A DNA stretch of 64,000 bases from an uncultured candidatus Porisulfidus sp. (lineage in GTDB: Bacteria > Pseudomonadota > Gammaproteobacteria > Poriferisulfidales > Poriferisulfidaceae): positions 96,001 through 160,000 of the forward strand of contig OZ241993.1 of assembly GCA_965204575.1 (NCBI GenBank). The letters are read 5' to 3'. Each line of letters begins with the position of its first letter. Position 1 is the stretch's first letter. Position numbers and translations under genes: made by a program. Positions 8,997 through 12,464 of the stretch are shown here, piece by piece. The notes beneath the pieces were generated by a model, which did no database searches, had not been told where the DNA came from, and saw only the letters and a list, made by a program, of their open reading frames with translations.

Positions 8997-9875
8997 GTGA
9001 CTCTGGCTACAGAACTTGCCCCATTGCGACAACGGATCATCGATCGGTTGGAGGAGGTCCTGCCGGGACCTGAAGTCGCGCCCGAGCATCTGCATGCAGC
9101 CATGCGGCATGGGGCGCTGGTCCCGGGCAAGTGCGTGCGGGGATGCCTTGTTTATGCTTCCGGACGGGCTTTAGGAATAGAAGTCGAGCGTCTCGACCGT
9201 TTTGCCTGTGCCCTGGAACTGGTTCATGCCTACTCTTTGGTGCACGACGACCTGCCGTGCATGGACGACGACGATATCCGGCGGGGGCGCCCCTCCTGCC
9301 ACGCAGCGTATGGTGAAGCAACGGCCCTGCTGGCGGGCAACGCCCTGCTGCTGTGTGCCATTGCCGAAGTGTCAGGCGACAGGGAATCGTCAGGAGAACA
9401 GCGCAGTGCGAGTATCGACCGGTTGTGCCAGGCGGCGGGTTCGTTCGGCATGATGGGAGGCCAGCAGCTGGATATCGAGTTGGAAGACGCTGAAGAGTGC
9501 CAAATCGACTTGCTTAATGAAGTGTATCGGCTCAAGACCGGGTGCCTGTTCCATGCCTCGGTCATGCTGCCGACGGAACTGGTGCAGGCCAGCCCAGGGC
9601 AAAGAGACGCGCTGGACACGTATGCGAGAAAAATTGGCCTGGCCTTTCAAGTGCGCGACGATCTCGAGGATATGGAGCAGGATGCCCAGCTTGCCGGCGA
9701 CGGGACGCGCCCGACTTATCCGGTCCTTCTCGGCGTCGAGGCAAGCCGCGAGAAGCTCTCCGGTCTCGGTGCGGAGGCGCTGGCGGCACTCGACATGTTC
9801 GGAGACCGCGCCGACTTGCTGCGTTCGCTTGGGCGATGGCTGACCTCAGGCTCTGCGGATGAACAGTTGGATTAA
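8997..9875 (+). CDS. ispA: farnesyl diphosphate synthase (polyprenyl synthetase)
   Basis: HAYSLVHDDLPCMDDDDIRRG first aspartate-rich motif, GGQQLD, KTG, LAFQVRDDLED. Confidence 0.88.
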   Translation: MTLATELAPLRQRIIDRLEEVLPGPEVAPEHLHAAMRHGALVPGKCVRGCLVYASGRALGIEVERLDRFACALELVHAYSLVHDDLPCMDDDDIRRGRPSCHAAYGEATALLAGNALLLCAIAEVSGDRESSGEQRSASIDRLCQAAGSFGMMGGQQLDIELEDAEECQIDLLNEVYRLKTGCLFHASVMLPTELVQASPGQRDALDTYARKIGLAFQVRDDLEDMEQDAQLAGDGTRPTYPVLLGVEASREKLSGLGAEALAALDMFGDRADLLRSLGRWLTSGSADEQLD

Positions 9876-11345
9876 GATGAGGTTTCACGGATTTGTTTGG
9901 AATCCGTGCTAGAGTAAATCATCATGCACCGAGCCTCCCGCTACCGTCTGTATCCGAACCAGACGCATGAGCGGCAGTTCACTCGGCTGTGCGGGGCCGG
10001 CCGATTCGTCTACAACGAATTGCTGGCCAGCCAAATCCAAGAGTACAAGCGTTTCGAGGCCGGCGAGAGAGAAAGGCCGGGCACCTCCGAGTTTGACTTC
10101 GGAAGGCGGTATGCACGCCTGAAAGCACAGGAAGGTCACGAGTGGCTGCGGGAGCTGTCAGCCGTGGTCGTGCGCGGCACGGGGGCTTTCCCGCTGGGGT
10201 CGGCGTTCGCGCATTTCTCCCGTCGGATCCGGGAGAGCAAGTGCGGCAAGCAGGCCGGATTCCCCCGCTTCAAGGTCAAGGGCAAGAGCCGGGAGTCGTT
10301 TACGATCCCGGAGGACGTGAAGATCCGGAGCAAGCGGCTTTGGGTACCGAAGGTGGGCTGGATCCGGATGAACCGCAAGGCGCAATCGCGCACGCAGGGA
10401 GCCGACCCTTGGGACAGCGGCGAAGCCAAGACCGCGGTGGTGTACCGGGAGCTGGACAAATGGTACGTGTCGGTGCTGTGGGAGGTGCCAGACCCGGACT
10501 GGCGTTGGCACGGCGGGGTCTGCGGGATCGACCGCAACTCGGAGAACATCGCAGGGGCCTGGAGCGGCGGGCGGAGGCTGATCGAGATTCCGTATGAGCG
10601 AATCGGGAAGTACGAGGCGCGGGCCCGACACTACCAGTGGCGGGCGAGCCACCGGGAGCGGACCGAACTGAAGGATTCTGACGGAGAACCGGTGCGCACG
10701 AAGTCGGGCAAGAAGATCAAGGTGGCCTCGAACCGACGCCAGCGCTTGCAGTTGCGTGCGGCGAAGGCGAAGCGCAAGGCGGCGGAGATCCGCAAGGACT
10801 TCAGCCACCAGGCCTCGGCCGACCTGGCTCGGAACTTCCAGCACCTCGTGCTGGAGGACCTGGACGTGCAGGCGATGCGGCGCTCGGTGCGGGGGACGAA
10901 GGAAAAGCCAGGGCGGCGCGTGAAGGCGAAGACGGCGCTGAACCGGAAGATGGTGCAGTTCTCTTGCATGGGAATGGTGGACCGCTTTCTCCAGTACAAG
11001 GCGGCAGATCTCATCCGGGTGCCGGCGCGGAACACCAGCCAGGCCTGCGCGGAGTGCGGGCACACCGAACAAGGCAACCGGAAGGAGCAGGCGCACTTCA
11101 AGTGCCTGGCCTGCGGGCACACGGACAATGCGGACATCAATGCCGCACGAAACATCCTGGACCTGGGATTGAACAGGCTCCTGGCCGGAGGCGCTCCGGT
11201 GACGGGACGGGGAGGGGACAACGAAGCGGGGGCATTCTTCTATGAGTGCCTAGTGGACACCGCCGATGATCCGTCAACGATGCAGTGGAACTACCGGGGC
11301 TCGCCCCCCGACTTCCACACAGAATCGTGAAGCGCCGTTAAGATG
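9872..11345 (+). mobile_element. non-autonomous tnpB element with 8-bp flanking direct repeat TTAAGATG and imperfect terminal inverted repeats
   Basis: TTAAGATG at 9872-9879 and 11338-11345; 9884-9902 matches the reverse complement of 11313-11331 at 15/19; no transposase gene inside. Confidence 0.7.
9924..11330 (+). CDS. tnpB: RNA-guided endonuclease TnpB
   Basis: YRLYP N-terminus, FPRFK, RuvC motifs GID / LEDL / NADINAARNI all intact, Zn finger CAECG...CLACG. Confidence 0.95.
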   Translation: MHRASRYRLYPNQTHERQFTRLCGAGRFVYNELLASQIQEYKRFEAGERERPGTSEFDFGRRYARLKAQEGHEWLRELSAVVVRGTGAFPLGSAFAHFSRRIRESKCGKQAGFPRFKVKGKSRESFTIPEDVKIRSKRLWVPKVGWIRMNRKAQSRTQGADPWDSGEAKTAVVYRELDKWYVSVLWEVPDPDWRWHGGVCGIDRNSENIAGAWSGGRRLIEIPYERIGKYEARARHYQWRASHRERTELKDSDGEPVRTKSGKKIKVASNRRQRLQLRAAKAKRKAAEIRKDFSHQASADLARNFQHLVLEDLDVQAMRRSVRGTKEKPGRRVKAKTALNRKMVQFSCMGMVDRFLQYKAADLIRVPARNTSQACAECGHTEQGNRKEQAHFKCLACGHTDNADINAARNILDLGLNRLLAGGAPVTGRGGDNEAGAFFYECLVDTADDPSTMQWNYRGSPPDFHTES

Positions 11346-11390
11346 CCGTAAACCGGACGACGGTACACAACGAGCGGGGTTCTGGTTCAC

Positions 11391-12464
11391 ATGCCTACTT
11401 CAATCTCGAAGAGTCTGCAAGACTGTGACAGCGACCTCGCCTATCAGGACGCTATTTTGCAAGGTGTTTCCCGCACCTTTGCTCTCACGATCCCCCGGCT
11501 TCCCGATGCATTGCGCGACGTGGTGGGCAATGCCTATCTCCTGTGCCGGATTACAGACACCATCGAAGATGAACCAAGCCTGCCCTCGGAACAAAAACAA
11601 ATATTCTCGGAGCGCTTCATCGATGTCGTCGCCGGCCGTGAAAGCGTAGAACCCTTCGCACGGGAACTCGGTTCCTCGCTGTCCGCATCGACCACCGAGG
11701 ACGAACATGATCTGATCGCCAATACCGACCGGGTTATCCGGATTACTCATGGATTCCGCCCCAACCAGCGGAAGATCCTTGAGCGTTGCGTGGAAACCAT
11801 GGCGCGGGGAATGTCCGAATTCCAGCGGAACGCAACTTCCGACGGCCTGGAAGACCTGTCCCACCTTGATCGCTATTGCTACTATGTCGCCGGGGTCGTC
11901 GGCGAGATGCTGACGGAACTCTTTTGTGACTACTCCGCAGAGATAAATGAACGGCGCGAGGAGCTTCTCGCGTTGTCGGTCTCGTTCGGGCAAGGGTTGC
12001 AGATGACGAACATCCTCAAGGACATGTGGGAAGACCGACGCCGTGGAGCCTGTTGGTTGCCGCGTGATGTCTTCCAGGCCGCGGGGTACGATTTGAGTGC
12101 CATGTCCGCTGGGGAAACCAATCCCGCTTTCGCCAAGGGATTGTCCGAACTCGTGGCGGTCGCCCGCTGCCACCTGGAAAACGCACTCCGGTTCATTACC
12201 CTTATCCCTCGCCACGAAACCGGCATTCGCCTGCACTGCCTGTGGGCATTGGGAATGGCCGTTCTGACCCTGCGCCGCATTCATGCAACCCCCGCTTTCC
12301 ATAGCGGGCAGGAGGTGAAAATCTCGCGCCGCAGCGTGCGCGCCGTTGTCGCCGTCACCAACGCATCGGTCCGCTCCAACCTGGCTTTGAAGGCACTCTT
12401 CGGGGCACTGGCCTCCAGGCTTCCGCGCAGTCAGGTGGACTGCCTCCCGCAAGCGCAACCGTGA
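11391..12464 (+). CDS. squalene/phytoene synthase family, single-enzyme squalene synthase type
   Basis: [54 protein letters not shown]. Confidence 0.85.

Follow-up and report, generated by a model that had tools for sequence, protein, structure and literature searches.

A transposable element built around a single tnpB gene lies between an ispA-like gene and a squalene/phytoene synthase family gene in a 64,000-nt stretch of DNA (the window) of contig OZ241993.1, from an uncultured candidatus Porisulfidus sp. Our analysis shows that this element is probably a non-autonomous transposon of the ISL3 type that is moved in trans. TnpB, the ancestor of Cas12, may be more than idle cargo in it. The reading that we put forward, with a probability of roughly 0.45, is that TnpB cuts unoccupied alleles next to a G/CTG motif and that the insertion is kept or spread when the occupied copy serves as the template for repair. 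A little more tentatively, this would be TnpB-guided homing carried over to a DDE transposon of the ISL3 type, with an RNA scaffold that has absorbed the right terminal inverted repeat (TIR), a guide that begins with the duplicated 8-mer, and a target-adjacent motif (TAM) outside the duplication.

The genome to which the window belongs (G000) is a single contig of 1.82 Mb, 98.75% complete, with 60% G+C. It holds six near-full copies of the element (81 to 100% DNA identity), and 16 TnpB loci were found in total by tblastn. With 20 copies in relatives, the six make up family A (26 copies, 25 of them with both ends readable). The element is present in 9 of 16 genomes of the genus, and the genomes bearing copies are sponge-associated gammaproteobacterial metagenome-assembled genomes according to public records, some labelled Candidatus Porisulfidus. 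A search with the 412-aa protein in other genomes of the class gave no match at E<=1e-40 (a sample of 400, with up to four candidates scored per genome).

The original prediction started from an identical TTAAGATG at 9872-9879 and 11338-11345 and proposed a tnpB element resembling a miniature inverted-repeat transposable element, mobilised in trans by a DDE transposase. Both repeats are present. A shared 8-mer between the two end windows was also obtained in 357 of 20000 shuffles, and the 8-mer alone is therefore suggestive, not decisive, evidence of a duplication. We set the register of the duplication by where similarity among family-A copies starts and stops, which at the right end is at ...GCGCC. 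The 8-bp duplication stood, and its position moved by one base, to 9871-9878 and 11337-11344; of the final G common to both TTAAGATG repeats, the left copy is base 1 of the left inverted repeat (IRL) and the right copy is part of the flank. The match between 9884-9902 and the reverse complement of 11313-11331 (15 of 19 positions) is as it had been described. The caveat attached to it, that the inverted repeats are set in from the direct repeats by 4 and 6 nt, disappears because the family register puts inverted repeats of ~27 bp directly against the 8-mers, as in the other copies.

Those copies have their ends in common and differ in their 8-bp direct repeats: the flanking 8-mers are alike on the two sides of one copy and different between copies. 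The two sides agree at 8/8 positions in 11 of the 25 copies, at 7/8 in 8, at 6/8 in 2 and at <=4/8 in 4, so that 19 of 25 reach at least 7/8 (nine of the 8/8 class were counted by script, and L068 and L039+L040, the latter at two contig ends, by eye). The family-A 8-mers are 72% A+T, against the 60% G+C of the genome, and contain no fixed motif.

The left flank of the window copy was matched in 13 of 16 genomes. Inspection of the empty site covered the five relatives that could be placed by anchors (G009, G003, G008, G005 and G001; 90-95% identical), seven more distant relatives that matched the flank (L087-L093) falling outside the anchor pattern. In all five, ispA is followed by ...GTTGGATTAAGATGCCGTA... 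and then by the downstream gene, with the 8-mer present once and no element. The site lacks exactly 9879-11336 plus one 8-mer, and the empty site that had been predicted, ...GGATTAAGATGCCGTAAACC..., is thus found in 5 related genomes. The squalene/phytoene synthase family gene directly follows ispA in genomes without the insertion. The locus was present in three DNA runs of one study and in no listed RNA run. Contigs of the DNA runs bridge both junctions, and no empty allele was seen in them (no contig joining across the element). A scan of metagenomes yielded 3 loci, at two sites already represented by L064 and L068. The six tnpB copies are 11-19% diverged from the window copy, and relatives with a flank divergence of no more than 5-10% have its site empty, which points to tnpB copies being turned over or imported.

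A candidate for the mover was found in the same genome. A Pfam search gave three identical full matches to DDE_Tnp_ISL3 (218 bits) and one remnant of 35 bits; the transposase protein, at 215.7 bits on DDE_Tnp_ISL3, also carries Zn_ribbon_ISL3 and HTH_Tnp_ISL3. The three copies are 100% identical, which indicates that ISL3 has been recently active. Each has its own 8-bp duplication (AAATGTTC, CCTAAAGT and AATCTATT), and TCCAAAAC is found in L116. An 8-bp duplication is the norm of the ISL3 family (ISfinder), whose inverted repeats in general begin with GGCTCTT. The ends of the tnpB elements match the left or right inverted repeat (IRL or IRR) of ISL3 at 16-22 of 24 positions (22 of 24 for the IRL of copy L063 against the ISL3 IRL), and the two ends of ISL3 itself match each other at 19 of 24. 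Inward of the ~27-bp ends, the tnpB element has no similarity to ISL3. No transposase gene was found inside any of the 26 copies, and tnpB is the sole open reading frame (ORF) in the window copy. The absence of TnpA stated in the original prediction extends to the whole single-contig genome: searches for Y1_Tnp (PF01797) and Resolvase (PF00239) gave 0 matches there, the control searches being positive in 6 and 12 of 14 control genomes, respectively. From the likeness of the TIRs, the 8-bp duplications and the lack of a Y1 or serine TnpA in the genome, we infer that mobilisation in trans by the ISL3 transposase is the mechanism with the strongest support. The transposase would bind the TIRs, cut targets with an 8-bp stagger and move the element in trans; in the window, the element inserted into an AT-rich 8-mer between ispA and the squalene/phytoene synthase gene and duplicated it. 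The proposal of a DDE transposase acting in trans is borne out to this extent, and ISL3 is one of the three families that had been named for it. In addition, an IRL and an IRR of this TIR type meet directly, without any interior, in a 40-bp palindrome at G000:C1:about 624985-625025(-), which has no obvious duplication.

The product of the tnpB ORF (9924-11330) matches Cas12f1-like_TNB, HTH_OrfB_IS605 and OrfB_IS605 (PF07282, PF12323 and PF01385) in Pfam and ISDra2 TnpB in a phmmer search of PDB (E 4e-19). All six tnpB ORFs of the genome are intact. The RuvC D/E/D residues, already recognised as intact in the window copy, lie in the motifs GIDRN, LVLEDL and NADI, which the six keep with conservative variants. 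Pairwise ratios of nonsynonymous to synonymous divergence (dN/dS) among the six are 0.14-0.27 at dS 0.27-0.74 (aa 1-412), a pattern of substitutions that marks TnpB as maintained under purifying selection. The paralogues align to aa 1-412 only. The position of the tnpB stop is not conserved, lying within the IRR in the window copy and in the flank in another copy.

At the nucleotide level, the element is near-invariant over its final ~160 nt (about 11180-11336) in 22 copies, including a subfamily of 69% identity, and this block ends exactly at the IRR terminus. In codons that overlap it, dS is lowered to 0.03-0.31. RNAalifold predicted 40 pairs in the block, 5 of them with compensatory changes; a predicted stem uses the inner part of the IRR, and another predicted pairing joins the last 6 nt to a GGCGCU further upstream. 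A search of Rfam by E-value over 9700-11500 gave no match. We read the block as a putative RNA of the obligate mobile element-guided activity (OMEGA) type, or omega-RNA, whose scaffold would have absorbed the right repeat and whose guide would start in the flank: because the scaffold reaches the last base of the right repeat, the guide would consist of the right duplication and the flank behind it. We also considered the right TIR itself as the guide, with TnpB cutting its own ends. This was rejected, since the conserved block and the predicted terminal pairing reach the last IRR base and the flank bias described below lies outside the element. Stand-alone stretches that resemble the block (75-103 nt, 78-85% identical to its core) occur without tnpB at G000:C1:1479682-1479784, 1028845-1028925 and 775985-776059, the first of them followed by an IRR-like end resembling that of a second TnpB family. 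They may be remnants or RNA-only derivatives.

In 25 of the 26 family-A copies, a G directly precedes the left duplication (binomial p 1.6e-12 at a G frequency of 0.30). At -2 there is T in 15 copies and G in 7, and at -3 C in 14, giving a CTG-like context. The first base past the right duplication is unbiased (G8 A5 C8 T3). Since the empty sites of relatives already have the -1 G, it belongs to the target and was not made by the insertion. At the six left ends of the ISL3 type, the -1 bases are T, T, C, A, C and A, with G in 0/6 (Fisher p 7.7e-6 versus the tnpB copies) and a verified 8/8 duplication in 4 of the six. A one-sided target preference is not expected from a symmetric transposase complex, and the transposase-carrying elements lack the G. 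The G sits where a TAM should be, because it directly precedes the would-be guide sequence in the unoccupied site. A TAM inside the duplication, as in Fanzor1, was rejected because the last base of the 26 left 8-mers varies.

We predict 11337-11356 as the stretch encoding the guide, on two grounds: the scaffold stops at the IRR terminus, and the matching sequence in the empty site has the G/CTG bias on its 5' side. Such a guide (right duplication plus flank) would match the unoccupied site, where it is preceded by the left flank. With G/CTG as the TAM, TnpB could cut the unoccupied allele, and repair from the occupied allele would result in retention or spread of the homing type. Persistence would then depend on an ISL3-type insertion having landed beside the motif; as the transposase would not select the motif, only such insertions would be driven to persistence.

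A second TnpB family of the genome (family B; 39% aa identity, different TIRs of ~26 bp) has G at -1 in 6 of 7 readable left ends (14 loci, L101-L114). Its duplications agree at 8/8 positions in L112 and L104 and at 7/8 in L113 and L102, and no transposase matching its TIRs was found in the own genome. A third family (C; 17 loci) has a conserved interior and several TIR types, with 8-bp duplications of at least 7/8 at 8 sites. All 16 TnpB loci of the genome, which has no Y1 or serine TnpA, seem as a rule to have the architecture of TIRs and target duplications.

Several observations weigh against homing by TnpB or against ISL3 as the mover. The control for the G bias consists of 6 ISL3-type ends, which include three identical elements. 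The motif is a single strongly conserved base, which is thin by comparison with the usual TnpB TAM of 4-5 nt. At the 8 duplication sites of family C, which is distant and heterogeneous, the -1 base is G4 A3 C1. The pairs of the predicted terminal pairing in the IRR hardly vary, and the few changes are G-U compatible, so that covariation gives it little support. No promoter-like site was found in a scan of 9780-11480. No duplication was found in 4 of the 25 copies with both ends readable. ISL3 DNA occurs in 5 of 16 genomes versus 9 of 16 for the tnpB element; the closed genomes G011 and G013 hold tnpB copies and only partial matches to PF01610, and G013 has five near-identical copies of the 69%-identity subfamily despite having no intact ISL3. 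Finally, the benefit of homing is not obvious if ISL3 moves by copy-out-paste-in or leaves a double-strand break, as set out in the available text of a 2026 review (PMC13565253). As to the four copies lacking a duplication (L004, at G000:C1:1158419-1159872, and L067, L071 and L074), all keep the left-hand G at -1, which means that the change occurred in the right flank, the side that would encode the guide.

Much of this would also be expected if TnpB and its RNA were hitch-hikers on a non-autonomous ISL3-type element and the -1 G reflected a bias of target or orientation, or sampling. ISL3 alone accounts for the TIRs and the duplications, the G-bias control is small, family C lacks the bias, and DDE transposons have been argued to gain little from an OMEGA module (PMC13565253, in the text available). 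We nevertheless consider passive carriage the less likely reading. The bias is one-sided, with G in 25/26 on the left and an unbiased +1 base on the right; the six transposase-type elements that have the same TIRs lack it, and it recurs in family B, where the TIRs are different and TnpB is related. Purifying selection on TnpB and the near-invariant putative RNA block argue for function as well.

The patchy occurrence of ISL3 bears on a different possibility, that the mover is not the co-resident ISL3 but another DDE family that duplicates 8 bp (IS1595 or IS256) or TnpB itself. Copies of tnpB are found in two closed genomes that lack an intact ISL3 transposase, and families B and C have other TIRs, with no partner found in their own genome. 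Against this, the ends of the tnpB element are as similar to those of ISL3 as the two ends of ISL3 are to each other, the length of the duplication and the AT-rich target are the same as for ISL3, and the only other transposases in the repeat inventory of the genome are of the IS110 and DDE_Tnp_1_4 types. Multi-copy insertion sequences (IS) are often missing from draft genomes, and in G003 the ISL3 left ends lie at three contig ends. The patchy co-occurrence would be explained if the autonomous element had been lost after a burst or had been supplied from outside, and we regard a mover other than ISL3 as improbable. In G005:C16, an ISL3-type left end starts one base past the right duplication of a tnpB element (L080/L038), a tandem arrangement that could move as a composite carrying transposase and tnpB. 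A piece of the transposase was found in L057 (G000:C1:793174-794496(-)), a 441-aa frame that combines a fatty-acid desaturase domain with ~105 residues of the ISL3 DDE domain (34 bits). The same region of PF01610 (positions ~92-196, 31-35 bits) gave one match each in G001, G003, G009, G011 and G013, and these weak matches may be the orthologous remnant of L057.

An ordinary IS200/IS605 element of the IS1341 group, with a fixed 4-5-nt left target, a right cleavage site and a Y1 TnpA as the mover, would fit a TnpB gene with no transposase within the element and a hairpin in the left end of the window copy (CACGGATT at 9886-9893 pairs 8/8 with 9901-9908, as had been noted for 9886-9908), but it is contradicted by flanking repeats that vary by copy with no fixed motif within, by ends that are inverted repeats, by an empty site holding the full 8-mer once, by the lack of Y1_Tnp and Resolvase in the genome and by the hairpin itself, which is perfect in the window copy only and partial or absent in the others, and it retains hardly any probability.

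Features of the element, its surroundings and related loci (positions in the window unless preceded by G000:C1)
Feature	Position	Strand	Basis or remark
Upstream neighbour, polyprenyl synthetase (ispA-like), stop within left duplication	8997..9875	+	PF00348, E 7e-41
TAM-like flank, TGG in window copy; G at 9870 directly 5' of left duplication	9868..9870	+	Candidate TAM, role predicted
Left 8-bp target duplication ATTAAGAT, contains ispA stop codon	9871..9878	+	Single copy in empty sites
Complete non-autonomous element, 1458 bp (IRL first base to IRR last base); ISL3 type probable	9879..11336	+	Ends common to 6 own-genome copies and 20 copies in relatives
IRL, ISL3-type	9879..9905	+	18/24 vs ISL3 IRL, 19/24 vs ISL3 IRR; aligned with other copies
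tnpB ORF, 468 aa, intact RuvC D/E/D and CxxC..CxxC zinc ribbon; final ~56 codons overlap putative RNA block	9924..11330	+	Pfam, phmmer
Putative omega-RNA-like scaffold, 5' end approximate	11180..11336	+	Near-invariant nucleotide block reaching last IRR base; RNAalifold
IRR, includes tnpB stop codon (11328-11330)	11310..11336	+	Reverse complement 21/24 vs ISL3 IRL
Right 8-bp target duplication GTTAAGAT, 7/8 vs left copy	11337..11344	+	Family register
Predicted guide-encoding stretch (right duplication and flank), as RNA 3' extension	11337..11356	+	Predicted from scaffold end and G/CTG bias
Downstream neighbour, squalene/phytoene synthase family gene	11391..12464	+	PF00494, E 6.5e-58
Three ISL3 elements, 100% identical	G000:C1:36846-38197, 236196-237543, 396974-398323		Bounded by inverted repeats, own 8-bp duplications
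Second TnpB family (B), own-genome loci	G000:C1:226531-227948, 266612-268029, 362141-363555	-	~26-bp TIRs, 8-bp duplications
Third TnpB family (C), about 30% identity, abundant	G000:C1:65583-66797(-), 435815-437025(+), 1618193-1619509(-) and others; L121-L138

The element combines features of several known systems. Like members of the IS1341 group of IS200/IS605, it has a single tnpB with a putative RNA block overlapping the 3' end, and its product is homologous to ISDra2 TnpB. Unlike them, it is bounded by TIRs and by 8-bp duplications that vary, where they have hairpin ends and a fixed 4-5-nt left target, and no Y1 TnpA is present. It shares with the ISL3 family the TIRs of the co-resident ISL3 type, the 8-bp duplication and AT-rich targets, and differs from it in having no transposase gene and an interior made up of tnpB and its putative omega-RNA with no ISL3 similarity beyond the ~27-bp ends. 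Since three IS200/IS605 features fail and the end and duplication features of ISL3 are present, a non-autonomous ISL3-type element with a putative OMEGA module is the description that we adopt.

Fanzor1 has reportedly been found in eukaryotic DDE transposons (Bao and Jurka, 2013). As with Fanzor1, a TnpB-family nuclease is carried here by a DDE-type transposon with TIRs and target duplications. In Fanzor1, the 5' target duplication is part of the TAM and the 3' one lies in the scaffold, according to the available text of the review (PMC13565253). The element described here is bacterial, the last base of its duplication varies, and the G that is conserved is found outside the duplication; for the last two reasons, the implied target is a site that was never occupied. 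If the homing reading is true, its mode would be distinct from that of Fanzor1, whose duplication itself is part of the TAM.

Among prokaryotes, six TnpB branches (DDE-1 to DDE-6), all with inverted terminal repeats, have been tied to DDE transposases, and solo TnpBs with nearly identical ends were presumed to be mobilised in trans, IS630 being named for one branch (PMC10691335, Altae-Tran et al., PNAS 2023; available text). The review names ISL2, IS630 and IS1031 as DDE partners and calls the prokaryotic cases rare and uncharacterised (PMC13565253, available text). Our element resembles those of 2023, as far as the text of that article goes, in that TnpB lies within a TIR-bounded transposon with its 3' end near the transposon end and in that solo copies occur; it differs in its probable partner, ISL3, and in that our data show the target duplications, the empty site and a flank bias resembling a TAM. 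The pairing of TnpB with such a transposon is therefore less unusual in kind than the original prediction assumed, since TIR-bounded DDE-associated and solo TnpBs had been reported (PMC10691335, available text). ISL3 is not named as a TnpB partner in the texts of PMC10691335 or PMC13565253, although the supplementary lists of the former may include it. Thus, the kind was described in 2023, and within the available text of that article the ISL3 partner is not named and no description of the flank footprint was found (PMC10691335). A TnpB-ISL3 association was likewise not found by title or abstract among the searched papers that contain both names.

These results indicate that an element with tnpB alone, placed in IS1341 by default, can in its mechanism be a member of a different IS family. 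To our knowledge, the natural role of TnpB has been worked out only for IS605 and IS607 transposons, which excise without a scar. For the question of whether and how TnpB serves DDE transposons, the element offers a case from nature in which independent insertions are numerous and both an autonomous partner and an empty site have been identified, together with a testable prediction of the TAM and of the guide start in a DDE context. Compact TnpB variants with a possibly short TAM may also be of interest for genome editing. If the homing reading is true, the contrast of 25/26 with 0/6 would be a population-genomic footprint of RNA-guided drive, and, for uncultured symbionts, a read-out of TnpB function provided by nature.

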